Shown in pieces: positions 13 to 46,583 of a stretch of 64,000 nucleotides of DNA (the stretch's first letter is position 1; each line of letters opens with the position of its first letter). Location of the stretch: the IMG/VR virus record IMGVR_UViG_3300028887_000082, one strand, 5' to 3'. The position numbers and the translations under genes are program-made. This DNA is from a virus (Duplodnaviria; Heunggongvirae; Uroviricota; Caudoviricetes). The notes under the pieces were generated by a model. That model saw only the letters and a program-made list of their open reading frames with translations. It was not told the DNA's origin and searched no databases.

Positions 13-94
13 GGGAGTGTCGCATAGTGGCAATTGCAAGGGTCTGTAACACCCTCGCCTTCGGGCTTCGGAGGTTCGAGTCCTCCCGCTCCCA
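13..94 (+). tRNA. tRNA-Tyr (anticodon GTA), type II
   Basis: Acceptor GGGAGTG/CGCTCCC (one G-U); anticodon stem AGGGT/ACCCT with loop CTGTAAC; long variable arm; T-arm GGAGG-TTCGAGT-CCTCC; discriminator A. Confidence 0.75.
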
Positions 95-110
95 CAAAAA
101 CTTTAAGGTT

Positions 111-443
111 ATGAAAAAGACAGTTAAGTTTTTCAAACAGGATGACAAATGGTATGCAGACATTCCAAACCACACACTGGATGAAAATGAGATGGTGATG
201 GGTTCTGATATTATGTTGGAGATGTTTGCGAACGGTGCGAAGGAACTCACATTAACATTGTCTGATGATGATATGTCTGATGCATTCATAACATTGAGAA
301 GAAAGGAACATGATGAGGATGGTGCCTGGTACACAGTGTTCGGGACAGACTTTGAGGATGTTTGGATATGTAATGTGACACATGATGTCTTCGGTGAACA
401 CCCTGAATGTATCTACATCAGTAAGATAACTCAACATAAATAA
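111..443 (+). CDS. hypothetical protein (110 aa) embedded in tRNA array
   Basis: ORF 27..443 trimmed to the first ATG (MKKTVKFF...), because its upstream part overlaps tRNA-Tyr. Confidence 0.45.
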   Translation: MKKTVKFFKQDDKWYADIPNHTLDENEMVMGSDIMLEMFANGAKELTLTLSDDDMSDAFITLRRKEHDEDGAWYTVFGTDFEDVWICNVTHDVFGEHPECIYISKITQHK

Positions 444-530
444 GGGGATGTGCTGAAACTGGCAGCCAGGCCAGACTTAGGATCTGGTGTCCGGAAGGAC
501 GTATGGGTTCGAGTCCCTTCATCCCTACCA
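444..530 (+). tRNA. tRNA-Leu (anticodon TAG), type II, CCA encoded
   Basis: Acceptor GGGGATG/CATCCCT; anticodon stem CCAGA/TCTGG with loop CTTAGGA; long variable arm; T-arm TGGGTTCGAGTCCC; ends ACCA. Confidence 0.75.
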
Positions 531-607
531 CAGTCTTTCGGGACTTTAAAGAGTTGTAGAAATACAATCCATCGAGGTCAGTCCAGAACCAGTTAATCTG
601 GACATTT

Positions 608-680
608 GCGGCAGTGGCGGAATGGTAGACGCGCCACTTTGAGGGGGTGGTCCGGGCAACCGGGTATGGGTTCGAGTCCC
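608..680 (+). tRNA. tRNA-Leu (anticodon GAG; Ser/TGA reading not excluded), type II
   Basis: Acceptor GCGGCAG/CTGCCGC perfect 7 bp; Leu-type D-loop AATGGTAGA; anticodon stem CCACT/GGTGG with loop TTGAGGG; long variable arm TCCGGGCAACCGGGT; T-arm ATGGG-TTCGAGT-CCCAT. Confidence 0.65.
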
Positions 681-791
681 ATCTGCCGCACAATAAAAAG
701 GGTGGGCCAATCGGAATAAGGCAGGGTAAGTCTCCGGTTCTTCTTTGATGAGGGTGCACCAGTAATCAAAGTTTCTTAAATTACCCAACCC

Positions 792-865
792 GGGCAAGTA
801 ACTCAGTTGGTTAGAGTACCACTCTGATACAGTGGTGGTCGTAGGTTCGAGTCCTACCTTGCCCA
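792..865 (+). tRNA. tRNA-Ile (anticodon GAT)
   Basis: Acceptor GGGCAAG/CTTGCCC perfect; D-arm ACTCAGTTGGTTAGAGT; anticodon stem CCACT/AGTGG with loop CTGATAC; T-arm GTAGG-TTCGAGT-CCTAC. Confidence 0.85.
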
Positions 866-873
866 CAACAAAT

Positions 874-948
874 GCCCCTATCATACTAATAGGTTTAGGT
901 GGCCACCCTCTCAAGGTGGAGATACGGGTTCGAATCCCGTTGGGGGTA
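874..948 (+). tRNA. tRNA-like, possibly tRNA-Glu (anticodon CTC); weak D-arm, possible pseudogene
   Basis: Acceptor GCCCCTA/TGGGGGT pairs only with two G-U pairs; anticodon stem CCACC/GGTGG with loop CTCTCAA; canonical T-arm ACGGG-TTCGAAT-CCCGT; no convincing D-stem. Confidence 0.45.
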
Positions 949-967
949 CAAAAAATATTCAAAAATA

Positions 968-999
968 TTTGGTAGTTTCAAATTTTTTTGTTATCTTTG
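968..999 (+). promoter_or_regulatory. Bacteroidota-type promoter (-33 TTTGG, 20 nt, -7 TATCTTTG)
   Basis: AATATTTGGTAGT ... TATCTTTG; same architecture recurs before many genes in this window. Confidence 0.5.
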
Positions 1000-1169
1000 T
1001 ACTGTAAGTTCATTGAAATATTGATGCACATATAGGAACAACAAGATGGGGTACCTATAAGTCTCACATAAGGATTCTAGATTGAGGGGGTGTGAGAGAA
1101 GGGTACAAATAATGTTAAAGAGGATTCCCGACCCTTAATAGGAGGAGAAAAGCGCTCTCTCCGATCCTC

Positions 1170-1204
1170 TGACAACAGTGACTACGGAAATCTGTTGTGT
1201 TCTT
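1170..1204 (+). ncRNA. hairpin with conserved loop TGACTACGGAAAT (stem ACAACAG/CTGTTGT)
   Basis: 7-bp stem around a 13-nt loop, 4 nt upstream of tRNA-Leu(CAA); the same loop recurs at 1426-1448 with a different stem. Confidence 0.45.
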
Positions 1205-1207
1205 TAT

Positions 1208-1280
1208 GCCCAGGTGGGGGAATGGTAGACCCAGCTGTCTCAAAAGCAGCCGACCATCCGGTCATGTGAGTTCGAGTCTC
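1208..1280 (+). tRNA. tRNA-Leu (anticodon CAA), type II
   Basis: Acceptor GCCCAGG/CCTGGGC perfect; D-loop AATGGTAGA; anticodon stem GCTGT/GCAGC with loop CTCAAAA; long variable arm; T-arm GTGAG-TTCGAGT-CTCAC. Confidence 0.85.
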
Positions 1281-1425
1281 ACCCTGGGCACTTTGATGAA
1301 AATCCTAGGTGGGTGGTATCTATAGCAGACTCCTTTAAAATGGGGAAGGAGGAAAGATACCGAATACTGGACAGGTGGTTTCGTCTAGCATCCTGGTGAG
1401 GGGGAATGTCCTCACAAGACCACTT

Positions 1426-1462
1426 GAGAATGGTGACTACGGAATTCCATTTGTTTTCATTT
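1426..1462 (+). ncRNA. hairpin with conserved loop TGACTACGGAATT (stem AATGG/CCATT) plus T-rich tail
   Basis: Second copy of the TGACTACGGAA loop with a compensatory stem; followed by TTGTTTTCATTTTTTAT, so terminator-like. Confidence 0.4.
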
Positions 1463-1837
1463 TTTATGGTGGGGTTATCAAACTTAACCACCCGCATCCT
1501 TGAAGAGAATGTGTTGCCGAGCCGTGTCAAGTTTATCTTGTATCCGGAGGAGTGAAACTTCCAAGTTGACAGGTTATTGCACTCGCCTGTCAATTATTAC
1601 TGAACCCACCAGTAAGACTGTTAAGCAGTATATCAGTATGGTACATGGGAGTTGTGCATGAGCTGGCTGAAGAGTAGTTTCCGGATATGGTGTTGAAACC
1701 CGGGGAAAATGAAAAGTAAGTCAATAGCAATAGGGAACCGGTGGAGTTACTGTGACTTTGTAATTTTGTCCATTACAGAACCGGGGAAATAATGGAACAC
1801 CAATGTGGCTAAAATGGTAGGGATTCACAAAAATCAG

Positions 1838-1898
1838 TGAAGGTGGCCACACACCTGGACAATCACTGATTACGAAAATTATTTTTTATAAATATATA
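1838..1898 (+). terminator. stem-loop (ATCAGTGA...TCACTGAT) followed by T-rich run, upstream of tRNA-Glu
   Basis: 8-bp stem with a structured 21-nt loop, then TACGAAAATTATTTTTTAT. Confidence 0.4.
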
Positions 1899-1904
1899 AC
1901 AGTT

Positions 1905-1976
1905 GGCGCCCTCGTCTATCGGTTAGGACACGAGATTTTCATTCTCGGAAGAGGGGTTCGATTCCCCTGGGCGCTA
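1905..1976 (+). tRNA. tRNA-Glu (anticodon TTC)
   Basis: Acceptor GGCGCCC/GGGCGCT (G-U at 1:72); D-stem GTCT/GGAC; anticodon stem CGAGA/TCTCG with loop TTTTCAT; T-arm AGGGG-TTCGATT-CCCCT. Confidence 0.8.
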
Positions 1977-2037
1977 CTAATCAACCGGAAGGTTGTTTAC
2001 TATCCAGTCAATAATTCATGAATAAACCTGGGTAGAG

Positions 2038-2111
2038 GTCTGATAGCTCAGATGGTGAGAGTACCACACTGATACTGTGGAGGTCACAAGTTCAAGTCTT
2101 GTTCAGACTAC
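2038..2111 (+). tRNA. tRNA-Ile (anticodon GAT), second copy with imperfect acceptor stem (possible pseudogene)
   Basis: D-arm TAGCTCAGATGGTGAGAGT; anticodon stem CCACA/TGTGG with loop CTGATAC; T-arm ACAAG-TTCAAGT-CTTGT; acceptor GTCCTGA/TCAGACT has two mismatches. Confidence 0.5.
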
Positions 2112-2225
2112 GAAACATATCGCGGGGGAGTGAAACGGATAAGAACATCCCACAAGTTTGTTCAAAGATCATTACAGGCTCATAACCTGTAGATACTGGC
2201 TTCGACTGCCAGACCCGCAACAAAG

Positions 2226-2379
2226 ACCTTTATGAAGCAAGTGGAATTCGGTATTTCAACCTATGCAAGTTATCAGAGTCAGTGTACAATGAATCTGAAG
2301 AACAGTATAAAAGTCAATACTGATAAGTCTTCTGTGGAAATTCAAGCCCAGTTGTCCTGGTTCGAGCCCAGGTAAAGGT
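2226..2379 (+). ncRNA. elongated tRNA-like gene (154 nt) with ~75-nt internal insertion
   Basis: Perfect 7-bp acceptor ACCTTTA...TAAAGGT flanks a canonical T-arm CCTGG-TTCGAGC-CCAGG; TG follows the 5' acceptor strand as in neighbouring tRNAs; internal part not foldable by eye. Confidence 0.4.
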
Positions 2380-2555
2380 CCATATACAACAAAAAACAAC
2401 AAACATGGCAACAGTTAAAAACACATCATTCTCAAGAAGAGAAGTCAAGCATAAGAAACGCCCTGGAATCATTTCCAAGTGTAAGTCTTCAAAGAACAAG
2501 ACATCAAAACACTATGTGAAACCATACAGAGGTCAGGGCAGACCATAAAAACCTT

Positions 2556-2637
2556 CGGGGTGTAACCGGTAGTTGGTTTCCGACCAGTTTTGGGAACTGG
2601 GCCGCAAGGCGCGCAGGTTCGAGTCCTGTTACCCCGA
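2556..2637 (+). tRNA. tRNA-like, probable tRNA-Pro (anticodon TGG) with unusually long variable arm
   Basis: Acceptor CGGGGTG/TACCCCG; anticodon stem CCAGT/ACTGG with loop TTTGGGA (G37); 12-nt variable hairpin GCCGCAAGGCGC; T-arm GCAGG-TTCGAGT-CCTGT; D-stem only 3 bp. Confidence 0.5.
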
Positions 2638-2640
2638 CAA

Positions 2641-2822
2641 CACCTGGTGGACAAATGGTAAAGTCGCCCTATTGGGTAGGGAGGTGTGTAATAGAAGTTT
2701 TCCGGCAGTGAGGAGTAATGGAGTCGCGATCCACCGAAGGCACGGGAACGAGAATAAGCACAGGCCTGGATGTATTCGCGATGCTGAAGGGTGAATGGGG
2801 GTTCAATTCCCCTTCGAGGTGA
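2641..2822 (+). ncRNA. elongated tRNA-like gene (182 nt) with ~110-nt insertion after the anticodon region
   Basis: 5' part CACCTGG-TG-GAC-AATGGTAAA-GTC with stem-loop CCCT-ATTGGGT-AGGG (TGG anticodon-like); 3' part GGGGG-TTCAATT-CCCCT then CGAGGTG, which pairs 6/7 with the 5' acceptor; insert contains two copies of TCGCGAT. Confidence 0.4.
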
Positions 2823-3129
2823 CAAAGATTGTTGTGGTGTTGCAGAACTTTAAAAGGAACAACACAGGTGTAGAGGGAAACTTTAATGGGTAATTTTTTT
2901 TACCAGCTAACCTTCAGAGACCTCACCAAGGATGATGCTTCATCATGGAGGGCACTCCAAGATGACAAAAAGATAGTTACAGTGAGAGTCTTATTGAGAA
3001 CTGTTCGACCCAGGAGGAGTGATGTTTTAGAGCATGTTTGACTGTACGGGGATAAACGGTGGCGACCGGTGAGTTTTTCTGGGCACTTCTCAGAACAAAA
3101 ACAAAGAAAATTAACAAAACAGTCTTTAA

Positions 3130-3204
3130 GGGTGTTTAGCGCAGCTGGTTCAGAGCATCTCGTTTACACCGAGAAGGTCGGGGGTTCGAATCCCTCATCA
3201 CCCA
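3130..3204 (+). tRNA. tRNA-Val (anticodon TAC)
   Basis: Acceptor GGGTGTT/ATCACCC (one mismatch); D-arm TAGCGCAGCTGGTTCAGAGC; anticodon stem TCTCG/CGAGA with loop TTTACAC; T-arm GGGGG-TTCGAAT-CCCTC. Confidence 0.75.
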
Positions 3205-3342
3205 CAAAGAGATACTTGAAGAAGCTACGGGTGTAAGATACTAGTAAAGATTACACATAGGGGCCTACCATATTGTAGTTTATGTGTTCTAAAACATCAA
3301 GTAACAACATAGAGGACTTCGAATTAATCTATGGCTCTTAAT

Positions 3343-3414
3343 GCCGATGTAGCTCAGTGGCAGAGCAGGGGTTTTGTAAACCTCAGGTCGAGATCTCGGT
3401 ATTCTCCATCGGCT
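3343..3414 (+). tRNA. tRNA-Thr (anticodon TGT) with non-canonical T-loop
   Basis: Acceptor GCCGATG/CATCGGC perfect; D-arm TAGCTCAGTGGCAGAGC; anticodon stem GGGGT/ACCTC with loop TTTGTAA; T-arm GAGAT-CTCGGTA-TTCTC (4 bp, unusual loop). Confidence 0.65.
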
Positions 3415-3472
3415 CAAAATTATTGAACTTGAACTTTCATAAATACTTTATAAGGATTATAAAAGTTCAACT

Positions 3473-4066
3473 ATGACAAACTGGGAAGATAGAAAAGATA
3501 CCCTGGTAGATTTGATACAGGTTCAGAAATTACCATATGAACAGATTGGTAGAATGTTCAATTGTTCAGGTAATAACATCAAGAAAGTTGCAAAAAAACT
3601 TGGTATTGAATTAGTCCAGAAAAGAAAGATAAATGAAAGTGAAACTTTCAATAAAGGAAAAGGTAATAAGGGTATCTGTTTAAACTGTGGATGTGAATAT
3701 AACATTTACAGGTCTTCAAAAGGAAAGTTCTGCTCAAACAAATGTCAGGGAGAGTATGAATATAAAGAGTTCATTGAAAAATGGAAAAAGGGTGAAGAAT
3801 CTGGATTGACAGGAGAATATGGAATTTCTCGTCACATAAGGAGATACCTTTTTAATAAGTACAAATGTAGTTGTCAAATTTGTGGATGGAGTGAAGTAAA
3901 TCCATTTACTGGTAATGTTCCTTTGGAAATTCATCATATAGATGGCAATTACGTAAATAATAAAGAGGAAAATTTACAACTCCTTTGTCCAAATCATCAC
4001 TCACTGACTGAAACCTTTAAGAACCATAATAAAAATGGTAGAAAAGGTAGAAGGAAGTACAATTGA
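3473..4066 (+). CDS. HNH homing-type endonuclease (free-standing, inside tRNA array)
   Basis: C-terminal HNH motif ...EIHHIDGNYVNNKEENLQLLCPNHH; Cys-rich Zn-binding stretches CLNCGCEY...CSNKCQ and CQICGW; N-terminal HTH-like segment. Confidence 0.85.
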   Translation: MTNWEDRKDTLVDLIQVQKLPYEQIGRMFNCSGNNIKKVAKKLGIELVQKRKINESETFNKGKGNKGICLNCGCEYNIYRSSKGKFCSNKCQGEYEYKEFIEKWKKGEESGLTGEYGISRHIRRYLFNKYKCSCQICGWSEVNPFTGNVPLEIHHIDGNYVNNKEENLQLLCPNHHSLTETFKNHNKNGRKGRRKYN

Positions 4067-4072
4067 TAATTT

Positions 4073-4227
4073 GCCCCAGTGGCTCAATGGTAGAGCAACG
4101 CACTTGTATAGATGGCGAAATTCCATTTTAAAAACTATGACTACATCAAAAGGCTCATAGGAGTGAGGGTTCGATTCCCTTATGTAGTCCAATGCGTAGG
4201 TTGCTGGTTCGATTCCGGCCTGGGGCT
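4073..4227 (+). tRNA. interrupted tRNA gene: 5' half + ~90-nt insertion in anticodon loop + 3' half; insertion contains a nested T-arm/acceptor minihelix
   Basis: Outer acceptor GCCCCAG...CTGGGGC perfect 7 bp; D-arm TGGCTCAATGGTAGAGC; anticodon stem ACGCA (4098-4102) pairs with TGCGT (4193-4197); T-arm GCTGG-TTCGATT-CCGGC; insert 4103-4192 begins CTTGTAT (TGT-like); nested ACTACAT...GAGGG-TTCGATT-CCCTT-ATGTAGT-CCA at 4140-4191. Confidence 0.6.
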
Positions 4228-4285
4228 CAAGAAAAAGGATTTTGGCCTGTTAGTTAAAATCCATATAAAATAAAAAGTCAAATTT

Positions 4286-4906
4286 ATGTCAAAATTAATG
4301 AAACCAGAAGAGAGGGATCAGCAGATCAAGGATTTGATGATTACCATTAGAAGGAACACACAGGGTTCCAAATGTATTGAGATCTTTGAAAATCTTTTGA
4401 ATGAGGTTGAGGACAAAGAGTTTGTTGATACTGTTATAGCAGACACTCACAAATTCATCTCTGAGTTCTCAAGACTATGTAAGGATGTGGACAATATGAA
4501 GAATCTGGATTATATCTCCAGAATCCTCACACATGAGTTCATACTTCCCCACAAGTATTTCCGTAAGTCACAGAATATGGCGAAGGTATACTTGCTGATG
4601 TATGACAGACTTGTGAAGATATATTCACATCCTGTATATGATGTTGAGAAAGGTATCATCCTTTCCAATGTCAACTTCCTGGGTACAATTCACCACAAGG
4701 AAGACCTCACTGCAAATGATGTGATTGCAGTGTTCAAGTATTTCGGTGACCTTTCAGGACTTTCCGTTGACCAGGTAAAGGAAAAGAAGGAAGAAGCCAG
4801 GATGGTCATCTTACTCTACAATTATCTGCCTGCCATAGTGAAGGCACTTATTCAGACCAAGAGGAGAAGCTTGAATCTTGACAAGAACTCCAAGAAGTTT
4901 GAATAA
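4286..4906 (+). CDS. hypothetical protein (206 aa)
   Basis: Long + strand ORF between the tRNA block and tRNA-Ala. Confidence 0.6.
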   Translation: MSKLMKPEERDQQIKDLMITIRRNTQGSKCIEIFENLLNEVEDKEFVDTVIADTHKFISEFSRLCKDVDNMKNLDYISRILTHEFILPHKYFRKSQNMAKVYLLMYDRLVKIYSHPVYDVEKGIILSNVNFLGTIHHKEDLTANDVIAVFKYFGDLSGLSVDQVKEKKEEARMVILLYNYLPAIVKALIQTKRRSLNLDKNSKKFE

Positions 4907-4934
4907 ATAACAGAACTAACAGGCTGGAATCTTT

Positions 4935-5001
4935 GGGGGATTAGCTCAGCTGACTAGAGCACCTGATTTGCACTCAGGAGGTCATGGGTTTGAATCCCAT
5001 A
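4935..5001 (+). tRNA. tRNA-Ala (anticodon TGC), CCA encoded
   Basis: Acceptor GGGGGAT/ATCCTCC (G-U at 4:69); D-arm TAGCTCAGCTGACTAGAGC; anticodon stem CCTGA/TCAGG with loop TTTGCAC; T-arm ATGGG-TTTGAAT-CCCAT; ends ACCA. Confidence 0.8.
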
Positions 5002-5043
5002 TCCTCCACCAAAAAAGGACAATTATTTGCTGGGATACTGTGA

Positions 5044-6132
5044 GTGTCCCTTTTTTATTCAATGAAAAGAATATTTATATTCATTGTATTTTTATTCCTT
5101 GGTATGACATCACTGCAATCGCAGAATGTCGTATCATCTACTGTTGAGTTTTTATTCAACACAGATGAGTTTGTACAGAATGAGAAATATGACAATTTCA
5201 TAAACACAATTGTACCTTATATCAACAGCAACAAGGATAATATTGAGAGTATCCTGTTGGTGGGATCTGCATCCCCAGAAGGAAACAAGGAATGGAATGA
5301 CTACCTTGCTGTCACCAGGGCCGAAAAGGTACACTCATATTTTATGGACAGTATTCCAAGACAGAAGGTCAATGTCATCAATGACTATGACCTATTCCTG
5401 GAAAAGACAGGTTATGATGAGAAGAACTGGAAAAGGTTGAGGGCAACTTATATTGAAATCCAACTCAAAAAAGCACCTGAAACCATAACCCTGTTTGACA
5501 CCATATATATAAAGGAGATGGATACAATCTACCAGTGCTGTGGCACTGATACTGTATATATCAAACAGGAACCGGAAAGGATACCTCTTCTTGCAGTAAA
5601 GACAAATCTCCTTTCTGATGTTCTCATCACCCCCAGTATTCAAGCTGAACTCTACACACATCTCTGGGGACTCTCACTTGAATTTGACTACACATTCCCC
5701 TGGTATCACAATGATGATGTATATTGGTATTACCAGATCCTCAATGGTACTGTTGGAATAAGGAAGTACTTGAACAATGAGTACTATGGTCATTACTTTG
5801 GAATATATGGAAACACTTTCACATATGACATCTGTTTTGATGCAGATAATGGATACCAGGGTGAGGGTAATGGAATCAGTATAGGTTATGGATATGTGTT
5901 CAGGAGTAAGAAACATCCCAAACTGAAGTTTGAACCTTATGTCAGGTTGGGTTATCTGTATTCAAGATTTGACACATATCATGCCTCTAATCCCTGGGAT
6001 GGAAAGTATTACTACAACTGGCATAAGAAGGCCAGTGAATTTACTCCCAGGAGACTTGAACTTAATTATTTCGGACCTACTGCAATAGGTTTCAATATAA
6101 CATACGACTTGATATGGTTAAGAAAGTATTAG
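5044..6132 (+). CDS. secreted outer-membrane beta-barrel-like protein (DUF3575-like, OmpA-like segment)
   Basis: Signal peptide MKRIFIFIVFLFLGMTSLQSQ; segment AVKTNLLSDVLITPSIQAE resembles the DUF3575 core found beside Bacteroidales fimbrillin genes; GSASPEGNKEWNDYLAVTRAEKV is OmpA-C-like; aromatic C-terminus. Confidence 0.5.
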   Translation: MSLFYSMKRIFIFIVFLFLGMTSLQSQNVVSSTVEFLFNTDEFVQNEKYDNFINTIVPYINSNKDNIESILLVGSASPEGNKEWNDYLAVTRAEKVHSYFMDSIPRQKVNVINDYDLFLEKTGYDEKNWKRLRATYIEIQLKKAPETITLFDTIYIKEMDTIYQCCGTDTVYIKQEPERIPLLAVKTNLLSDVLITPSIQAELYTHLWGLSLEFDYTFPWYHNDDVYWYYQILNGTVGIRKYLNNEYYGHYFGIYGNTFTYDICFDADNGYQGEGNGISIGYGYVFRSKKHPKLKFEPYVRLGYLYSRFDTYHASNPWDGKYYYNWHKKASEFTPRRLELNYFGPTAIGFNITYDLIWLRKY

Positions 6133-7178
6133 TTTTTATTGTTTCACTGTTGTTAGTTTTTTCTGCTTGTGATAAGAAACCTCTATATCTTCAGGGTGAT
6201 GCAGCAGTCACCGTTAATGTACAGACTCAGGTATCAATAGAAGCATATTGGAATACAAACATTCAAAGTACATTAAGATATGACTGGGACACCACTTTGT
6301 ATGGACCAATAGGTTATTCAAAGGTGGATAATGTTGACCTTGTGATATTCAACAACAAAAAGATAATAGAAAGGAAGACATTAAACACAGGAAAACGTCA
6401 ACTGATAGATATTGAATTAGGTAATACATATGACTTTTTGATTTTCAATAAAACAGAAAACACCGAGGATTTTTATATAGACAACAAGTTTTTAATAAGT
6501 ACAACCACTCCTGGTACAAAGTCTGTTGTTGAAGATGTATATTATGATTTGACAAACCAACCTGGTGAGATATTTTGTGTTTATCAAAAGAATGTATTTT
6601 TGTCAGATGATTTGTCTCAATATAAAGAGGTATATGATCATGACAAGTTAATATATGTGTATGACATCAATACTGAATTAAAACCGGTATCATACATCTA
6701 CCTTATACAGTTTATTATTGTAAAGGATGACAGTTTGGATATTGATGTGAAAGGTATTCCGGAATACAGAATAACCGGTGTGAGTTCCTCAAAGAATCTT
6801 TTCACCAACACTCCTGTATATACCGGAAAGAAAGAAATCAGGTCAACTGACATCAAACCCCCACAGGTGGTAGAGGATAGTTTGATTTTTGCGTCAAAAT
6901 TCACTATATTGAACTTGGGTAGTGATGATGAACAAAGTTCATGGGAGACTCCTGATAATTATATATACAACTGTTTGATAAATATTGAGACTGAGAAATC
7001 AGGAAGTTTTAATGGAATTGTCAATATTACAGACCAACTTAAAAAACAACCACAAGGAGGAATAATAACAATAAGGATTAACAGTTCAACATTGAGAAGG
7101 AAGGATCAGGACAGTGGTGGAATTAATGTTGATGTTGAACCCTGGCAAGAGGAAGAGGTTCAAGAAATAGAAATATAA
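6114..7178 (+). CDS. lipoprotein (354 aa), pilus-accessory-like
   Basis: Lipobox MVKKVLVFIVSLLLVFSAC-DKK; beta-rich N/T/D-rich composition; sits between the DUF3575-like and fimbrillin-like genes. Confidence 0.55.
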   Translation: MVKKVLVFIVSLLLVFSACDKKPLYLQGDAAVTVNVQTQVSIEAYWNTNIQSTLRYDWDTTLYGPIGYSKVDNVDLVIFNNKKIIERKTLNTGKRQLIDIELGNTYDFLIFNKTENTEDFYIDNKFLISTTTPGTKSVVEDVYYDLTNQPGEIFCVYQKNVFLSDDLSQYKEVYDHDKLIYVYDINTELKPVSYIYLIQFIIVKDDSLDIDVKGIPEYRITGVSSSKNLFTNTPVYTGKKEIRSTDIKPPQVVEDSLIFASKFTILNLGSDDEQSSWETPDNYIYNCLINIETEKSGSFNGIVNITDQLKKQPQGGIITIRINSSTLRRKDQDSGGINVDVEPWQEEEVQEIEI

Positions 7179-7220
7179 TACATAAATAATACATAAATAA
7201 TAATAAAAAACTTAATTGAA

Positions 7221-8405
7221 ATGAAAAAGATTTTATTCACATTATTAACCATATTAATGGTAATCGTATCATGTGCAAAAATAGATATTGTACCTGATAC
7301 ATATAATTCTCGTAATGAGAATGTGGAGATTGTTTTCGGTGCCCATGCAGGCAAGGGTTTGATGACAAGAGCAGTCATTAATGGTGATACTTTACCAGAT
7401 GGATCAGAGTTTGGTGTTTATTCATACTATGCAGCAGGAACCAATCATTTGTTGATTGACAATGGTCACTATGCAGTAAACAAGGATACAGCCAGGGCTA
7501 CTGGTGGTGAAAAGTATTATTGGCCAAAGTCAGATAACAATAATGTCACAAAGGATAGTATTGACTTCTTGGCAATTTATCCATATAGTACAACTGATTA
7601 TTCTCGTTCAGGAAACACTGTTACTATTACACTTAATGCATCAACAACAGATAGTACTTCTACAAAGGATGTTCTTTATGCAATAGCTGATAATCAGTAT
7701 CATCAGACAGTTGGAACTTATAACAATACTACACCAAATAAGTATTATGTTCCATTGACATTTAAGCATGCATTGACATTGGTTGAGTTCCAGGGTAAAC
7801 ATGCTGGAGCAACAAATAACATTGATACTATAACTGTTACAGAGATTGCTTTCTTGAATAGTGATGGTACTGCATATGCTATTTACACTGGTGGTTCAAT
7901 ATCATTTGATATATCTAAAATAACTGCAACCACAAAACCTGATACAACTTTTACAGGTGGTACAACAAACAATACTTTAAACTTTGCTAATAATTGTGGT
8001 CTTACATCATCAAAATACACAACAATATCAAAGGCAATAATGGTTCCTCAGGCTGTACCTAATAAGGTTCGCATAACTTATAATATAACCATTAAGAATA
8101 CTAATGGTGAAAAAGTGGAGTTCACTGGTCGTCAGGTAGTAAAAGAAATTAATACCGGTAGTGATATGACAAATAATACTCCTAGAAATTATGTATCTAA
8201 CTGGTATTCTGGTAAGCATTATGTTTACAGGTATTATATAACTGCTGAAGCTATTGAGTTTACTGTAACAGTTGATGACTGGGATCTTCCTGATGGTTGG
8301 CAGATTTGGGATCATGATGTAGCATCATATGTTGACCGTTTTTTCGAGAAGGCTTCAACAATCATGGGGAACTGTATAGAGGTGCAGAACCACATAATGG
8401 CGTAA
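7221..8405 (+). CDS. fimbrillin-like (type V pilus Mfa/FimA-like) lipoprotein; reading continues in -1 frame to 8980 across a T6 tract
   Basis: Lipobox MKKILFTLLTILMVIVSC-AK; candidate Arg maturation site LMTR|A near residue 50; T/S/N-rich beta-rich body; the -1 frame is open from 8336 to 8980 with no start codon before 8669. Confidence 0.5.
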   Translation: MKKILFTLLTILMVIVSCAKIDIVPDTYNSRNENVEIVFGAHAGKGLMTRAVINGDTLPDGSEFGVYSYYAAGTNHLLIDNGHYAVNKDTARATGGEKYYWPKSDNNNVTKDSIDFLAIYPYSTTDYSRSGNTVTITLNASTTDSTSTKDVLYAIADNQYHQTVGTYNNTTPNKYYVPLTFKHALTLVEFQGKHAGATNNIDTITVTEIAFLNSDGTAYAIYTGGSISFDISKITATTKPDTTFTGGTTNNTLNFANNCGLTSSKYTTISKAIMVPQAVPNKVRITYNITIKNTNGEKVEFTGRQVVKEINTGSDMTNNTPRNYVSNWYSGKHYVYRYYITAEAIEFTVTVDDWDLPDGWQIWDHDVASYVDRFFEKASTIMGNCIEVQNHIMA

Positions 8406-8668
8406 AATTTTCAAATAGCGTAAAGGGCCTTGATTTTAGTAGAGGAGATTACATTGAAGCCAAAATAGATTTACGCAATTTAAATAGAGCAAAGCAGAAC
8501 ATCATCTCTATTGGAGAAGATATAGCCAACTGGACCCCAAGTGGTAGTGGAGAAAAATATAATCTTCATATTTATTATCCCAATGATGTTAACGATTTAC
8601 GAATAAGATTTTCTGCATTAAGCAGTAATAGAATTAAGATTGGTAATACCACTTATAATCGTAGAACA

Positions 8669-8980
8669 ATGGGAATTGTTGATTCAGATATATTTTATTT
8701 TGATGAGGATACTAATTATGAAGTTACTATAAAATTTGACAAAGATGGATTTTATGTCAATGACCACTTGATAACCAGAGATGATTTTGAATCTGTTGAA
8801 CCAAGTAAAATACCTGAGTGGCCAACAAATCCAAGTGGTACTGGAACAGATGTTTGGACATATCCAGATTATTTCATGTTACATTTCCAAAATAAAGTAA
8901 GTGTTAGTTTTGGAAGCATGGAAGGTAGTACACGAAGTTACGCTTATTATGAATACATAAAATATCATCATGTACTATAA
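8669..8980 (+). CDS. C-terminal segment of the frameshifted fimbrillin-like gene (listed as separate 103-aa ORF)
   Basis: In-frame, stop-free extension from 8336 upstream of this ATG; probably not independently translated. Confidence 0.35.
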   Translation: MGIVDSDIFYFDEDTNYEVTIKFDKDGFYVNDHLITRDDFESVEPSKIPEWPTNPSGTGTDVWTYPDYFMLHFQNKVSVSFGSMEGSTRSYAYYEYIKYHHVL

Positions 8981-8981
8981 A

Positions 8982-9008
8982 AGAGAGGATAAAACATCCT
9001 CTCTTTTG
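8982..9008 (+). terminator. rho-independent terminator (AGAGAGGAT-AAAAC-ATCCTCTCT-TTTG)
   Basis: Perfect 9-bp stem with T-run directly after the stop at 8980. Confidence 0.7.
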
Positions 9009-9031
9009 TACATAAATATTTTATAAAAACT

Positions 9032-9268
9032 TTGTTATATTTAATATACAAAATAAGTTATATGAGTATGAATGATTTGAAATACTTTGGTAAGGTGGTT
9101 GCCTTGTTTCTTGCAGGATTCATTGCCATCATCACAGCATCAGGTGTTTGGAATGGTGTAGCAGAAGGATGTGTTGATTCCTTCTATGGTTGGGTTGCTG
9201 GTATCAACTTCATCATCCAGGGATTTGGTATCTATTCACTTTATAAGAAATTATTCCCAAAAGAATAA
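9032..9268 (+). CDS. small membrane protein (78 aa)
   Basis: Two predicted TM helices (VVALFLAGFIAIITASGVW; AGINFIIQGFGIYSLY). Confidence 0.45.
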   Translation: MLYLIYKISYMSMNDLKYFGKVVALFLAGFIAIITASGVWNGVAEGCVDSFYGWVAGINFIIQGFGIYSLYKKLFPKE

Positions 9269-9465
9269 TACAATATGCTCTCTGGTGAGTTTATGGGTGT
9301 CTTGATTAACTTCATATATGACCCATAAATAAAAGTGGTATAAGTGCAGTATATTCCAGGAGTACATACTGCAACGGTTCATAGTTCAGCCGGGAAACGT
9401 ACGAAACTATGCGTGGGATCCATAACAGACGGAGAAGCATACGGTCACTTGAAAGTCTGTTTTTC

Positions 9466-9553
9466 GGAGGGTTGCCTGAGTGGACGAAAGGGGCTGCCTG
9501 CTAAGCAGTTGAACCCTTTATGGGTTCCAGAGGTTCGAATCCTCTACCCTCCG
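9466..9553 (+). tRNA. tRNA-Ser (anticodon GCT), type II
   Basis: Acceptor GGAGGGT/ACCCTCC perfect; Ser-type D-arm CCTGAGTGGACGAAAGG; anticodon stem GCTGC/GCAGT with loop CTGCTAA; long variable arm; T-arm AGAGG-TTCGAAT-CCTCT; ORF 9344..9649 over it is spurious. Confidence 0.85.
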
Positions 9554-9671
9554 CACATAAATACTATGAATATACAATGTTTTTGGTCCAGAGGATTCCG
9601 GAACCTTTTGAGTGTTAATAAAAGACACGAATGGATTAGAGACAGTTAAATACAAAATAATTTAATAAAGT

Positions 9672-10508
9672 ATGTCTAATTTTATCGTTAAAGACTCATT
9701 GGCAAAGATTGCCATCCAAAAAAATCTAATCAAGGAATACAAGACTTCTGAATCTGACAGAACAGTGTACCTCAATGATGGTACTGAATTCCAAATCTAT
9801 CTCAAAAATCCTTATCAGACACATCTGGGTATTAAGATTTCTGTGAACAACAAGTCCATAGGTAATATGCTTGTGTTGAAACCAGGTCAGAGTTTCTGGC
9901 TTGACAGGTTTGTAAATGAGAACAGTAAGTTCTTATTCTCTACATACCAGGTTGAAAACACAGGTGAGATGAAGTATGCAACCAGTAACAATGGTAAGGT
10001 AAAGATTGAGTTCTACCATGAAAGGGAAAACACTTTCAGTTTCTGTCGAGGTGTCTCAACAGTTTATGATGGTTATAATGGTTGGAGTAGTGGTACCAAA
10101 TTATACAACAATGACAATATAACCTGTTATTACAGTGCTTCAACCATCACAGGTTCAGCAGCAACACCTGATACAGTTCTTACAGCAAGTTCTGCTTGCT
10201 TGGATTCAAGTTCTCGTTCAAGAAGTCTCAAAAAGGAGATTGACAAGAGTGCAAACAAGAAAGTTGATCATGACCTTACAATGGAGACAGGTAGGGTAGA
10301 AAAAGGTGGAAGATCAGACCAGGAATTTACAACCTGTGACATTAATTTTGATTACTATCCATTCCAGACAGAGAACATCCTTATCCTTCCAAATTCAAGG
10401 AAGCAGATAAGGGTTGAGGATACCAGAAGAAGATATTGCAGTCAGTGCGGAAAGAAGGTAAGTCCAAAGGATAAGTTCTGTTCCAACTGTGGTGCGAAAC
10501 TCTACTAA
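9672..10508 (+). CDS. hypothetical protein with C-terminal zinc ribbon (278 aa)
   Basis: C-terminus CSQCGKKVSPKDKFCSNCGAKLY; followed by a terminator. Confidence 0.6.
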   Translation: MSNFIVKDSLAKIAIQKNLIKEYKTSESDRTVYLNDGTEFQIYLKNPYQTHLGIKISVNNKSIGNMLVLKPGQSFWLDRFVNENSKFLFSTYQVENTGEMKYATSNNGKVKIEFYHERENTFSFCRGVSTVYDGYNGWSSGTKLYNNDNITCYYSASTITGSAATPDTVLTASSACLDSSSRSRSLKKEIDKSANKKVDHDLTMETGRVEKGGRSDQEFTTCDINFDYYPFQTENILILPNSRKQIRVEDTRRRYCSQCGKKVSPKDKFCSNCGAKLY

Positions 10509-10978: not shown

Positions 10979-12109
10979 ATGCAGATTATAGACAATGTAC
11001 AACTTGACTTCAGTGATGTTCTCATTAAACCCAGGAGGTCAAGTATTGATTCGAGAAGTAAGGTAGATATTACCAGGGAGTACAAATTCAAATGGTGTCC
11101 ATATAAAATCACAGGTACTGGTATTATGCAGGCCAATATGGGAACCATAGGTAACTTTAAAGTGAGTGAGAAACTGTTGGAGAATGGTATGTTTGCTTGC
11201 CTTCACAAATATCATGATACTGACAAACTGATTGATTTCTACAAGAAACTCATCCACAAAGGTGACGGAAGTATGAGAAGATGTCTCCTTGCAATAGGAT
11301 TGAGAGATAATGGTATTGAGAAACTGAGGGAAATAAACAAGGCAACCGGTGAACAGATTGGTGTGAAGTTTGATGTTCCCAATGGATATATTCCCCAGGT
11401 AAAGGAAAGAGTCATTGAACTCAGGAAGGAGTTTCCAGATATGTTCATTATGGTTGGTAATGTGGTTACTGGTGATATCACAGAAGACCTGATTCTGTCA
11501 GGTGCAGACTGTGTTGCAGTAGGTATCGGTAATGGTGCCCAGTGTCTCACAAGAAGACAGACAGGTTGCGGAAGACCACAGTTCTCCGCTGTCGTAGAGT
11601 GTGCAGATGCAGCTCACCAGGTCGGAGGTATGGTTTGTTCTGATGGTGGTATCACCTGTCCTGGAGATTTGGGTAAGGCATTTGGTGCCGGTGCGGATTT
11701 CATTATGATAGGAAGTCTGTTTGCAGGAACTGATGAGGCAGATGGTGAGACTGTTGAGAAGTATGTCTTCAATGGTGAGTATGACAAAATATTATATAAT
11801 CCTGGTTATGTGTTTGATCCCCATCTTGATAAGAAACAGTTCAAACAGTTCTATGGTATGAGTTCAACTCTGGCCCAGGAAAAGTTTGGTAATGGTAAAC
11901 CCAGTTACCGTGCGAGTGAAGGTCGTGTAACTCTGATGCCTTATACAGGATCTGTTTGTGATGTGATTGAGGAACTCCTTGGAGGATTGAGGTCAACAAT
12001 GACTTATATAGGTGCATGGAAACTCAAGAATATTCCTAAACAGTGTGTGTTCTATAAGGTTCACAACCAACTGAACCAGACATATGAGAGATTTACAGTA
12101 GGTAAATAA
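10979..12109 (+). CDS. guaC: GMP reductase (IMPDH/GMPR family)
   Basis: N-terminus ...LDFSDVLIKPRRSSIDSRSKVDITREYKFKW... parallels E. coli GuaC ([31 protein letters not shown]); catalytic-loop motif GIGNGAQCLTRRQTGCGRPQFSAV; ~375 aa. Confidence 0.8.
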   Translation: MQIIDNVQLDFSDVLIKPRRSSIDSRSKVDITREYKFKWCPYKITGTGIMQANMGTIGNFKVSEKLLENGMFACLHKYHDTDKLIDFYKKLIHKGDGSMRRCLLAIGLRDNGIEKLREINKATGEQIGVKFDVPNGYIPQVKERVIELRKEFPDMFIMVGNVVTGDITEDLILSGADCVAVGIGNGAQCLTRRQTGCGRPQFSAVVECADAAHQVGGMVCSDGGITCPGDLGKAFGAGADFIMIGSLFAGTDEADGETVEKYVFNGEYDKILYNPGYVFDPHLDKKQFKQFYGMSSTLAQEKFGNGKPSYRASEGRVTLMPYTGSVCDVIEELLGGLRSTMTYIGAWKLKNIPKQCVFYKVHNQLNQTYERFTVGK

Positions 12110-12141
12110 AAAAATGAGAGGTTGTTGCCTCTCATTTTTAT
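12108..12141. terminator. bidirectional terminator (ATGAGAGG-TTGTTG-CCTCTCAT flanked by A-run and T-run)
   Basis: 8-bp perfect stem between the convergent guaC (+) and 12143..13075 (-) genes. Confidence 0.75.
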
Positions 12142-12142
12142 T

Positions 12143-13075
12143 TTAATCACCCCAGTATGTACCTGGTCTTGAACAATTAATTTCAACTTCATATTTATAT
12201 CCTTTTGAGAAGTTGTCATCATTGACATATCTCATAACAGTCTTGACATCATAAGGACTCATTGAGATGAACTCATCATATTTGACATAAGGTGCATCCA
12301 TATAATCATCAGATTTCAGTGCATCTGCAATTTCCTTTGGAACATCCTGGGCAGCAATCTCCTCATAGTTGTCAGGATTTGCCTCAACATCTGCCTTGAG
12401 TGCCTCAACCCTTGCATCATATGCTTCTTTCTTTGCCTTCTCTGCGGCAGTCCTGGCTTCCTCCTCTTCTTTTTCTATTCTTCTCTTTTCCTCCTCTTCC
12501 CTCTGCTTTTCAAGATATTTGTCATAAAGTTCATCCACTTCCTTTGTAACTTCCTCAAGACCTGATGTCCTGATTTTGATGAACATTTCCAGAAAACCTA
12601 TTGCATCATTGTTACTGCTGTAATATGATTTTGAATCTATTGTTGTGAAATAGAAGTATTTGTTTTCCTCATTCCAAAGAACATAATAGAGGTCACCCTT
12701 GTTTGTGAAGCATGATTTAACTTTCTCAATATTGGGTTCTGACAATACTTCAAGGAGTCTGTCCACTTTACCTTCTGTACCGAATGTATGTGTGTCCAAA
12801 TATGCCTTACTTGGTTTATGAGAAATATAATCTCTACCTCCACATTCATATAATTTATCACATATTTCATCAGGAACAACAGCCTTGATTTCCTTATATG
12901 CAAAATTATTAAAAGTTTTTACTTTGAAAGATATGTTTCCCAGGAACTCATAATCCTTTGAAAGGAAACCATTCTTCATCTGTGAATAACTCAGATTCCT
13001 GATGTTTCCATTTTCAAGTTCCTTTATTGAAATAGATTCCTTAAGAAAGTTGTAACTATTAAAGTTTGGTACCAT
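12143..13075 (-). CDS. hypothetical protein with E/K-rich coiled coil (310 aa); one of two minus-strand genes
   Basis: Long minus-strand ORF ending at the bidirectional terminator; contains ...EEEKRRIEKEEEEARTAAEKAKKEAYDARVEALKAD... Confidence 0.6.
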   Translation of the reverse strand: MVPNFNSYNFLKESISIKELENGNIRNLSYSQMKNGFLSKDYEFLGNISFKVKTFNNFAYKEIKAVVPDEICDKLYECGGRDYISHKPSKAYLDTHTFGTEGKVDRLLEVLSEPNIEKVKSCFTNKGDLYYVLWNEENKYFYFTTIDSKSYYSSNNDAIGFLEMFIKIRTSGLEEVTKEVDELYDKYLEKQREEEEKRRIEKEEEEARTAAEKAKKEAYDARVEALKADVEANPDNYEEIAAQDVPKEIADALKSDDYMDAPYVKYDEFISMSPYDVKTVMRYVNDDNFSKGYKYEVEINCSRPGTYWGD

Positions 13076-13105
13076 ATTTTTGTTATATTTATAATTGAAC
13101 TTATA

Positions 13106-14206
13106 ATGTATTTATGTATGAATAAGAATTTTTTAGAAGATTTTTTGAAGACTTACAGACCTTCAGGGTTTGAACAGGAAGGTGCTGAAGTGTTTGTCAG
13201 TAATGCCTGTGGACTCAAAGGAGTCAAGAAAGAGTTTATTGATAAGATGTGGAATGCATGTGTGAGTGTGGGTAGTGAAAAGGAGGATGCACTGAAAATC
13301 CTCATCTCCGGTCACTCTGATCAGAACTGTCTCATTGTGACTGAAATCACAAAGAATGGTTTCCTCAAGTATGCAACCCAGGGTGGATTCTCTCCAAGGA
13401 CAGTAATTGATTCAGACCTCTTTGTCATCACAAACAATGATGGTGTGAAGAAACTTATCCCCTGCTTCTGTAGTTATAAAGCAATACATATAGAAAAACC
13501 GGATGACAGAAAGAAATGTCCAGAACATAAGGATCTCTATCTTGATTTGGGATGTACATCCAGGGAACAGGTTGAGAAACTCGGTGTACATATAGGTGAC
13601 CTGGTTGTATTCAACAACAGTGGTCTGAATATGGACTTTGGTCCTGATGGCAACTACATTGTAGGTTCAGGTCTTGATGATGGTGTTGCTTGCGGAATCG
13701 TTTATGATGTCCTGAAGAAACTTGATGAGAATGAACTCAAGGAGATGAACATCAGGGTATATGGTGCATGCATCACATCAGAGGAAACTGGTGCCAGGGG
13801 TGTTGGTCCTGTAGTAAGAAAGGTTCAGCCACATATCTCCATAGATATTGATGTATGTCATGACTGCACCAAGGAGATTGGTGAGGATGAAGGCCGGATT
13901 GCAAAGATGGGTGATGGTGCTGTCCTGAACTATGGTCCTGACAAATACAGACCTCTCAATGAAGACTTGAGACAGATTGCAAAGGATTATGACATCAAGT
14001 TGCAACTCATTGCCGGCAAGGCAGGAGGTACAAACACCAACAACATCCAGATGATGTCAGACAACTGTGCCACAACCCTGTTGAGTATCCCTTGCAGATA
14101 TATGCACAGCGGAACACATGAGATGGTCAATAAGGATGACATTGATGGTTGTGGTCAGCTCATATACAAGTTCATCAACAAGGTAGATCCAAAGAAGTAT
14201 GTATAA
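13106..14206 (+). CDS. M42-family metallo-aminopeptidase-like protein
   Basis: KILISGHSDQNCLIVTEITKNGFLKYATQGGFSPRTV parallels the M42 motif around the metal-binding His-x-Asp; downstream GSGLDDGVACGIV and D/E/H ligand-like residues. Confidence 0.65.
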   Translation: MYLCMNKNFLEDFLKTYRPSGFEQEGAEVFVSNACGLKGVKKEFIDKMWNACVSVGSEKEDALKILISGHSDQNCLIVTEITKNGFLKYATQGGFSPRTVIDSDLFVITNNDGVKKLIPCFCSYKAIHIEKPDDRKKCPEHKDLYLDLGCTSREQVEKLGVHIGDLVVFNNSGLNMDFGPDGNYIVGSGLDDGVACGIVYDVLKKLDENELKEMNIRVYGACITSEETGARGVGPVVRKVQPHISIDIDVCHDCTKEIGEDEGRIAKMGDGAVLNYGPDKYRPLNEDLRQIAKDYDIKLQLIAGKAGGTNTNNIQMMSDNCATTLLSIPCRYMHSGTHEMVNKDDIDGCGQLIYKFINKVDPKKYV

Positions 14207-45605: not shown

Positions 45606-45622
45606 CTTTAAAAAATAACACT

Positions 45623-45898: not shown

Positions 45899-45902
45899 AA
45901 TT

Positions 45903-46352: not shown

Positions 46353-46354
46353 TA

Positions 46355-46573: not shown

Positions 46574-46583
46574 AATTAAGATT

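Follow-up and report, generated by a model that had tools for sequence, protein, structure and literature searches.

A putative type V pilus-like operon with a candidate −1 frameshift in a jumbo-like phage of Bacteroidales

In the Bacteroidia, the dominant Gram-negative bacteria of gut and rumen, adhesive fibres are mainly type V pili, and how the subunits of these pili cross the outer membrane and assemble is still unclear. The closest described systems are the Fim and Mfa pili of Porphyromonas gingivalis and the FimA/Mfa-like pili of Bacteroides, which consist of lipoprotein pilins with two β-sandwiches. Cleavable pilins of this type are cut at FimA R46, Mfa1 R49 and BfrT R43 (PMC13655056; bioRxiv 10.1101/2024.11.15.621889); polymerisation requires a donor strand's extreme C-terminus, and tip pilins have no donor strands (PMC13655056). 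Tip adhesins of Bacteroides carry a C-terminal lectin-fold domain and have been modelled on 4QB7 and 5NF4 (bioRxiv 10.1101/2024.11.15.621889), and temperate Bacteroides phages are already known to encode single proteins of the pilin-tip-like kind, which are targets of diversity-generating retroelements (DGRs) (PMC6199706; bioRxiv 10.1101/2024.11.15.621889). Here we analysed 64,000 nucleotides of DNA from a virus of the Caudoviricetes (IMG/VR record IMGVR_UViG_3300028887_000082; the whole stretch is called the window below), in which a first-pass annotation had described a Bacteroidales type V pilus-like module at 5044–8980. We consider it probable that 5062–8980 is a compact type V pilus-like operon of a Bacteroidales jumbo phage, taken over from bacterial operons and containing a pilin that is extended into a fusion protein by a −1 frameshift.

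The locus comprises four called open reading frames (ORFs), all on the plus strand, and is flanked by tRNA-Ala (4935–5011) and tRNA-Ser (9466–9554). Its features are as follows:

5032–5050, plus strand: terminator-like hairpin with an 8-bp stem (4 GC pairs) and a T-run, TTTTTTATTC, between tRNA-Ala and g1
5062–6132, plus strand: g1, exported outer-membrane protein of 356 amino acids, DUF3575
6114–7178, plus strand: g2, lipoprotein of 354 amino acids, type V pilin fold, anchor-like
7221–8405, plus strand: g3 zero-frame product, lipoprotein of 394 amino acids, Mfa_like_1 fimbrillin family
8336–8980, plus strand: −1 frame ORF, 214 codons long, whose first ATG, GTG or TTG comes only at codon 112, encoding a linker and a domain of about 190 amino acids
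8339–8345, plus strand: slippery heptamer T_TTT_TTC in the zero frame of g3 (codons CGT TTT TTC)
8669–8980, plus strand: called 'fourth gene' (g4) of 103 amino acids, the C-terminal half of the −1 frame domain and not an independent gene
8976–9010, plus strand: strong hairpin over the stop of the −1 ORF (stem from 8976, stop codon 8978–8980), the likely operon end

The four ORFs form one operon. Genes g1 and g2 overlap by 19 nucleotides, an overlap that is identical in the related locus L002, and a hairpin scan found no hairpin or terminator between g3 and the called g4 that is comparable to the one at 8976–9010 (−18.9 kcal/mol, z = −7.8; none of 200 shuffled sequences was equally stable). The three consecutive genes with export signals are present as first described, with a Sec signal in g1 and lipoprotein signal peptides in g2 and g3. 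The beginning of the range needs correction: the GTG at 5044 falls within the hairpin at 5032–5050, and translation from the ATG at 5062 yields a classic signal peptide and a protein as long as the homologues (355–360 amino acids), so that 5062 is the most likely start of g1.

The module had been called type V pilus-like, and AlphaFold2 models compared with the PDB by Foldseek bear this out for both lipoproteins. The models have a two-domain transthyretin-like β-sandwich fold, and the top 24–28 PDB matches of g2 and g3 are all type V pilins. Unrelated folds, which the first-pass annotation had named as the result that would speak against its idea, did not come up among them. The signal peptide of g2 ends in ...LLLVFSAC (lipobox FSAC) with a predicted lipidation site at Cys19, which is at least 90% conserved in 27 homologues. 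Searched alone, g2 gave no significant match in Pfam, NCBIfam or PHROG and only noise in a single-sequence search of the PDB. Its placement comes from its relatives, i.e. the 27 close homologues and the 215 clusters of an exhaustive profile search: 23 of 40 diverse ones match DUF5119 (PF17145, best E = 3.8e-36), and the family profile matches PDB 5cag at 8.9e-17. The g2 model (predicted local distance difference test, pLDDT, of 79.6) matches type V pilins only, the best being 5cag, 4qdg, 3pay, 3gf8 and the Mfa2 anchor 5nfi (E = 1e-11 to 3e-7), and the anchor 5nfi and others rank above the FimA stalk structures. The top matches other than 3gf8 and 5nfi are reportedly anchors as well (Xu et al. 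2016). The family alignment of g2 contains no conserved basic residue in the loop after strand 1, and the C-terminal 24 residues (GGFxIDVxxW...) are conserved, yet unstructured in the monomer model (pLDDT <50), and are a candidate donor strand. The missing conserved cleavage site and the free, conserved C-terminal strand are as expected of an anchor pilin (PMC13655056) and suggest, short of proof, that g2 is anchor-like. We assign g2 to the two-domain type V pilin fold, closest to anchors of the Mfa2/FimB type, and, via its relatives, to the distant members of DUF5119.

In g3 the signal peptide ends in ...MVIVSC (lipobox IVSC), and the predicted lipidation site Cys18 is invariant in 16 homologues; the lipoboxes of g2 and g3 noted in the first-pass annotation are thus both conserved. 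Twelve of the 16 homologues match Pfam Mfa_like_1 (PF13149, best E = 4.9e-22), and their profile finds PDB 4k4k at 3e-5. The g3 model is best matched by 4k4k, 4qb7, 3sy6 and Mfa3 5nf4 (E = 7e-13 to 3e-7), and all 28 PDB matches at E ≤ 0.001 are type V pilins, also including 3ufi, 3t2l, FimA, Mfa2 and Mfa1. The arginine of the sequence LMTR|A, R53, had been proposed to correspond to the site where fimbrillins are matured by Arg-specific proteases. It aligns with a basic residue in all 16 homologues (mostly Lys, in a few Arg) and lies in the loop after strand 1, which is unstructured in the model; both alignment and model are in agreement with R53 as a candidate cleavage site, and its position corresponds to that of the cuts in FimA, Mfa1 and BfrT. 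A tail of 28 amino acids comes after the pilin body, which ends with ...GWQIWDHD at about residue 366, and the zero-frame peptide of g3 is ASTIMGNCIEVQNHIMA. Judged from alignment and model, g3 is probably a lipoprotein of the cleavable Mfa_like_1 type, its family membership being derived from its relatives.

The outer-membrane protein g1 starts with the Sec signal peptide MKRIFIFIVFLFLGMTSLQS. Residues 183–354 match positions 18–175 (of 177) of Pfam DUF3575 (PF12099) with 64.2 bits (cut-off 21.1, E = 1.3e-17), and the segment AVKTNLLSDVLITP, by which g1 had originally been recognised as DUF3575-like, sits at the start of this match. Residues 38–102 give an OmpA-like match (PF00691) below threshold (23.9 bits, cut-off 27.2), NCBIfam and PDB sequence searches yield faint matches of the Pal/OmpA-lipoprotein type in the N-terminal part, and the orthologue in the related locus L005 is likewise weakly flagged as OmpA. 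By these matches g1 is an exported protein that combines a weak N-terminal OmpA-like segment with a predicted C-terminal DUF3575 β-barrel. Among 5.8 billion proteins we found 383 homologues of g1, nearly all of them PF12099, on contigs of up to 412 kb.

The likeness to the type V pili of P. gingivalis and Bacteroides thus extends from the two-β-sandwich lipoprotein pilins, with fold matches including Mfa2, Mfa3, FimA and Bacteroides pilins of the Joint Center for Structural Genomics, to the basic residue after strand 1 of the cleavable pilin and an anchor-like subunit without a conserved cleavage site, in line with the described assembly logic (PMC13655056). In contrast to these pili, the cassette is encoded by a jumbo-type phage and is cut down to one anchor-like and one pilin gene, without recognisable separate stalk or accessory genes or a regulator. 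Its pilin also differs in the 28-residue tail and in an extra domain linked by a predicted frameshift.

This extra domain is encoded in the −1 frame downstream of the pilin body. The range 8406–8980 does not consist of a gap and a 103-amino-acid gene, as the called ORFs would have it, but belongs to one continuous, conserved, start-less −1 frame; this fourth reading frame had been missed in the first-pass annotation. To characterize it we compared seven loci, the window and L002, L005, L010 (an extra locus from a metagenome scan), L011, L012 and L013. The 263 nucleotides between the stop of g3 and the called start of g4 (8406–8668) are stop-free in the g4 frame, in the window as in the other six loci, and contain no ATG, GTG or TTG in the window and no near-cognate start conserved across the loci; the first 111 codons of the −1 ORF are free of all three start codons. 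The frame is −1 relative to g3 and begins to be open at 8336, a single codon ahead of T_TTT_TTC, and both this arrangement and a −1 frame stop one codon upstream of the heptamer are found in 7/7 loci. The heptamer follows the canonical X_XXY_YYZ pattern in the zero frame and is invariant in all seven, while the pilins are only 33–50% identical to that of the window. On both strands of the window TTTTTTC is rare (13 found, 23 expected; 99 of 100 shuffles had at least 13), an apparent avoidance of the heptamer by this genome.

The uncalled part of the −1 frame evolves as coding sequence, with 0.26, 0.22 and 0.45 substitutions at codon positions 1, 2 and 3, and is better conserved than the called g4 (consensus KFxNxVxGLDFxxGDYxEAKxDL...AKQNxxSxG...W...N.H.Y.PN...RFS). 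Automated annotation halves a conserved domain in every relative examined. Tail and heptamer are both absent from pilins without the downstream frame, whose sequences stop just after a WD(H/Y) motif. A programmed −1 frameshift is the best reading of this arrangement. Its predicted product has 586 amino acids (7221–8345, then 8345–8980) and would consist of the pilin up to ...YVDRFF, the Gly/Asn-rich linker REGFNNHGELYRGAEPHNG and the domain of about 190 residues. We rejected the possibility that the frame change stems from an indel in sequencing or assembly, as seven independent, divergent assemblies agree. The same protein would result if the RNA polymerase slipped on the T6 run; as this run is short compared with the lengths typical of polymerase slippage, we consider ribosomal slippage more likely. 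A block of about 25–30 nucleotides 3′ of the heptamer (8346–8375, CGACAAGGCTTCAACAATGCAGG) is nearly identical in L011, L012 and L013, whose proteins are about 35–50% identical to those of the window, which could be due to dual coding or to a signal at the RNA level. A hairpin GTTGAA/TTCAAC around the heptamer was dropped since it is not kept in L002. The idea that the C-terminal domain corresponds to the insert of sister pilins of 543–579 amino acids was ruled out (hhalign probability 0.2%). The sequence pattern of the domain raised the idea of a LamG/ConA-like jelly roll, for which we make no claim.

Well-known programmed −1 frameshifts are those of the lambda G/GT tail assembly chaperone, T7 gene 10A/10B and E. 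coli dnaX, whereas frameshift signals have been little studied in Bacteroidota, the presumed hosts. With these cases the locus shares the zero-frame X_XXY_YYZ heptamer, the overlapping start-less −1 frame and two products, here predicted, with a common N-terminal part, presumably in a fixed ratio. It differs from them in that the gene encodes an exported pilin instead of a tail chaperone, capsid or replication protein and that neither a stimulatory hairpin nor an upstream Shine-Dalgarno-like element was detected.

Operons of the same kind exist in bacteria, and each part of the cassette is of a known kind. The bacterial-type contig L018 shows the order DUF3575-DUF5119-Mfa_like_1, with two adjacent Mfa_like_1 genes and more downstream, and has AraC regulators and an S41 peptidase as neighbours, which further supports the initial assignment to a type V pilus-like module. 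In rumen Bacteroidales metagenome-assembled genomes (MAGs), AraC adjoins DUF5119, which is followed by Mfa_like_1 genes (three loci from a genome scan with the closer g2 alignment), and in B. thetaiotaomicron BT4233-4234 (DUF3868/DUF3575) lie near the Mfa1-type gene BT4227 (PMC10434189). The gene order of the cassette is therefore the native bacterial one, and bacterial DUF3575-DUF5119-Mfa_like_1 operons are its likely source, as far as gene order and families tell. The bacterial operons (L018 and the MAG loci L015 and L016) share gene order and families with the cassette and differ from it in their divergent AraC-type regulators and their three to five fimbrillin genes. Moreover, the DUF3575 protein of L018 is longer (471 amino acids) and has only DUF3575 as Pfam on record and no OmpA match, identity to the phage g2 is only 23–27%, and no frameshift-linked frame was seen in these operons, for which no systematic look was made.

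The codon composition hints at a separate acquisition of the pilin part, more recent or from another source than g1. The GC content at third codon positions (GC3) is 0.30 in g2, 0.25 in g3 and 0.21 in the −1 frame ORF, compared to 0.415 in g1 and 0.37–0.56 in other genes of the window; only the gene of an HNH endonuclease is as low (0.27).

A survey of relatives, which the first-pass annotation had suggested, shows that the cassette recurs in jumbo-phage-like contigs, i.e. in phage-like contigs of 119–412 kb and in one IMG/VR genome of 240 kb, in varied neighbourhoods. The samples named in the records are bovine or ruminal. The loci with known surroundings are:

L002: 119-kb contig, its pilin also on a 394-kb contig; beside genes for AAA_5/VWA and RNase H
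L005: 362 kb; between RecA and 5′-3′ exonuclease, DnaB and NrdD
L009: 311 kb; with T4_Y16D
L011: 71 kb; in synteny with the window
L014: 240-kb viral genome from IMG/VR; g1 and g2 each 45% identical to those of the window

Four designs of the cassette can be told apart:

Design A (window, L002, L005, L011): barrel, anchor, pilin with frameshift-linked domain
Design B (L009, L014): barrel, anchor, single pilin of 546–555 amino acids with an inserted domain, no fourth gene
Design C (L022, L023): barrel, anchor, tail-less pilin of 378 amino acids, then pilin of 551 amino acids with insert
Design D (L012, 5039–7772; L013, 128–2837): anchor-like gene and frameshift pilin

The anchor-like gene of design D matches g2 with an hhalign probability of 99.6%. 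That g1 is co-inherited in three of the four designs suggests that it works together with these pilins. Design C supports reading design A as the same pair of pilins packed into one gene, an inference drawn from the gene arrangement. The sister Mfa_like_1 pilins of 543–579 amino acids (P0017–P0030; L009 8001–9668, L014 8001–9641, L022 4522–6177) have an insert of about 200 residues in mid-pilin with the motifs DTTDTW, EIKSYY and DYDLHMGNSVWP.

The gene content, folds, family links, export signals, conservation in phage-like contigs and the heptamer with its start-less conserved −1 frame are established here; we infer the slip itself, the assembly and the benefit to the phage, taking the steps of the pathway from the type V system. 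The infected cell would export all products, g1 via Sec to the outer membrane, where its OmpA-like head might bind peptidoglycan, and g2 and g3 as lipoproteins that are lipidated at the lipobox cysteine and then moved to the cell surface like host pilins. As an anchor without conserved cleavage site, g2 would stay lipidated and donate its free C-terminal strand at the base. A host Arg/Lys-specific protease may cut g3 after R53 and open the groove for the donor strand; if the short form of g3 polymerises, the groove would also take strands from further g3 copies. A fraction of the ribosomes would slip by −1 on T_TTT_TTC, whereby the 19-residue zero-frame end would be replaced by the linker and the domain of about 190 residues. 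By analogy with the C-terminally extended tip adhesins of type V pili, the 586-amino-acid form may be the distal, ligand-binding subunit, and the unshifted product of 394 amino acids could be the stalk. As polymerisation needs a donor-strand C-terminus and tip pilins have no donor strand, a large C-terminal domain fits a distal, non-donating position. The infected cell would probably come to carry an adhesive structure, a short fibre or a stub, which could alter how the cell sticks to other hosts, feed particles or mucus, or the access to its surface.

Described proteins that resemble the predicted fusion are the DGR tip adhesins and prophage variable proteins (BfrT, BthT, BunT and targets of the Hankyphage type), many of them phage- or prophage-encoded (PMC6199706; bioRxiv 10.1101/2024.11.15.621889), which likewise combine a type V pilin body with a C-terminal domain; 4QB7 and 5NF4, their modelling templates, are also top fold matches of g3. 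Their extra domain has a C-type lectin fold, is encoded in frame and undergoes diversification by the retroelement. That of the cassette has no detectable family, would be joined through a −1 frameshift and is accompanied by an anchor and a barrel gene of its own. Neither a reverse transcriptase nor a template repeat was noticed near the cassette, although no search for either was made. With respect to the benefit for the phage, adhesion of infected cells to hosts or particles is the best fit to the adhesin-like architecture, which is speculation, and receptor masking is the main alternative. A bolder version, which we put forward as rather doubtful, would have one pilin gene give both the stalk and, by a frameshift at fixed rate, the tip adhesin, so that the efficiency of slippage sets the tip-to-stalk ratio and the pilus tethers infected Bacteroidales to uninfected hosts or particles, raising transmission.

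Several points weigh against this picture. Taken alone, g3 stays below the Pfam threshold, has no significant NCBIfam or PHROG match and gives only noise in a single-sequence PDB search, and its AlphaFold2 model is middling (pLDDT 68.5; template modelling (TM) scores 0.40–0.58). The cassette contains no protease gene, so assembly would depend on a host enzyme. Moreover, the DUF3575 barrel may not be obligatory, since the 6 kb upstream of the L012 pilin hold no DUF3575 gene; the sequence of L013 ends just upstream of the g2-like gene. The 28-residue tail after the presumed donor strand is unlike a textbook stalk pilin, and the C-terminal domain matches no family in Pfam, PDB (profile search), PHROGs or NCBIfam. 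With regard to the slip, neither individual nor alignment folds support a stimulatory RNA structure 3′ of the heptamer (fold z −1.3 to +0.35), and the sole shared stem, AAGGC/GCCUU, is invariant, shows no covariation and begins 2–3 nucleotides after the heptamer. In all loci the zero-frame tail remains open over 16–24 codons, as far as a TAA that is homologous among them, which makes it probable that the short product is meaningful too.

The lack of a significant stimulatory structure and the conservation of the zero-frame tail, together with the methionine at the called start of g4 that is kept in 6/7 loci, would also be in agreement with translation without any frameshift, either from a non-canonical start in the downstream frame or as the 103-amino-acid product only, with the heptamer merely coding for a conserved Phe-Phe. 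We consider this unlikely. No near-cognate start is conserved in the linker, and the 90 codons upstream of the methionine evolve as coding sequence and are better conserved than those downstream; as conserved coding sequence continues upstream of it, the product of 103 amino acids would be half a domain. Furthermore, the −1 frame opens exactly at the heptamer in all seven loci, the codon choice T TTT TTC is invariant though rare in the genome, and pilins that lack the downstream frame also lack the region of tail and heptamer. A −1 frameshift on T_TTT_TTC therefore remains our preferred explanation.

The same cassette might serve superinfection exclusion or receptor masking rather than adhesion. 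Phage morons with exported lipoproteins or outer-membrane proteins often block secondary infection, and the cassette shifts genome positions like a moron and has a GC3 unlike that of its neighbours. However, an anchor combined with a cleavable pilin and an added distal domain, as well as the sister cassettes with inserts, resembles an adhesive fibre and not a simple blocking lipoprotein, and we give exclusion or masking as the purpose a low probability. A moron acting on the host surface, one of the two roles considered in the first-pass annotation, fits the conserved export signals, the outer-membrane barrel and the neighbourhood of replication and nucleotide-metabolism genes.

The other role considered there, an adhesin on the virion, does not fit. 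Ig-like and β-sandwich adhesion domains are common on virions, and temperate Bacteroides phages encode lectin-domain pilin-tip-like proteins as DGR targets (PMC6199706; bioRxiv 10.1101/2024.11.15.621889), so that fibres or adhesins on the particle could be envisaged. But the Sec and lipoprotein signal peptides are conserved and the lipobox cysteine is invariant, which indicates export from the cytoplasm, the site of virion assembly. A gene dedicated to an outer-membrane barrel is inherited along with the others, the neighbours of the cassette are genes for tRNAs, replication and nucleotide metabolism and not structural modules, and there is no significant match among predicted viral structures or PHROGs (for the g3 model none in BFVD at E ≤ 0.001). 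We regard pilin-like virion parts as very unlikely; judged by these signals, the products are most likely exported to the surface of the infected cell and not built into virions.

The phage origin of the window, as initially stated, is well supported, and it looks like part of a jumbo phage. Positions 13–9554 hold 12 tRNA genes (Tyr, Leu ×3, Ile ×2, Glu ×2, Pro, Val, Ala, Ser) with protein genes interspersed, an array interrupted by the HNH endonuclease gene (3473–4066) and the pilus cassette. The ORFs of the window are dense, mostly on the plus strand and mostly of unknown family, and phage-type genes include a Dda-like helicase, Thg1-like, RlaP, a Dam-type methylase, an SPFH protein and a sigma factor. 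The exact g2 and g3 proteins also occur on a 153.6-kb contig, and homologues on contigs of 240–412 kb, one of them in IMG/VR. Although no capsid, terminase or tail gene was identified within the 64 kb, where the sole lead is a weak major-head PHROG match at 12143–13075 (E = 9e-5), a bacterial or other mobile-element region with an ordinary host pilus operon is extremely unlikely in view of the clustered tRNAs with HNH endonuclease, the dense plus-strand ORFs, the Dda-like helicase, Thg1-like, RlaP-like and phage sigma factor PHROG matches, the relatives on contigs with RecA, DnaB, NrdD, T4_Y16D and giant ORFs or in an IMG/VR viral genome, and the AraC regulators and several fimbrillin genes by which the bacterial operons differ.

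In the part of the literature covered, in GenBank phages and among predicted viral structures we found neither a complete exported barrel-anchor-pilin cassette across jumbo phages nor a description of a conserved −1 frameshift signal in a pilin gene, and the same partial literature coverage held nothing directly relevant on the functions of DUF5119 or DUF3575. A nucleotide search of GenBank phages with 4000–10000 returned a tRNA match only, tblastn of g3 against them gave no match, and g1 matched only the DUF3575-barrel regions of five unannotated faecal 'Bacteriophage sp.' records. A scan of IMG/VR with the extended g4 gave no match.

The cassette would add a surface organelle to the host traits that are rewired by jumbo phages. 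Barrel, anchor and one pilin make up a natural minimal set, which suggests that DUF3575 is a functioning component of the system and which could be used as a small construct in reconstitution; if the bolder version given above is true, DUF3575, being co-inherited with anchor and pilin in so reduced a viral cassette, would be a dedicated and so far unassigned biogenesis factor of type V pili. For programmed frameshifting in a Bacteroidota system, T_TTT_TTC with its start-less frame offers a clean candidate that is open to testing and, if the two products are stalk and tip, would be a new way to set the ratio of pilus subunits.

Further genes near the cassette or elsewhere in the window are listed here as minor observations. 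A small ORF 3′ of the cassette (9032–9268) encodes a predicted two-helix membrane protein, and small genes of similar size follow the cassette in L001 (4109–4315) and L011 (6603–6824), but not in L002 or L005. Auxiliary-type genes of the window (within 10979–14206, 26357–27250, 44286–47429, 55468–56685 and 59675–60514) encode an IMPDH/GMP-reductase-like dehydrogenase, an M42 aminopeptidase and a PRAI-like C-terminal-part protein, and the same set (10979–60514) includes an RlaP nucleotidyltransferase, a Thg1-like tRNA-His guanylyltransferase, an SPFH/Band 7 protein and a sigma-70-type factor. In L012 and L013 the cassettes are followed by giant ORFs on the opposite strand (about 1385 amino acids; >1000 amino acids with a Fib_succ_major match), and in L009 an IS605 OrfB/TnpB (Cas12f-like) gene lies on the minus strand at 12362–13588, about 2.7 kb downstream of the cassette.

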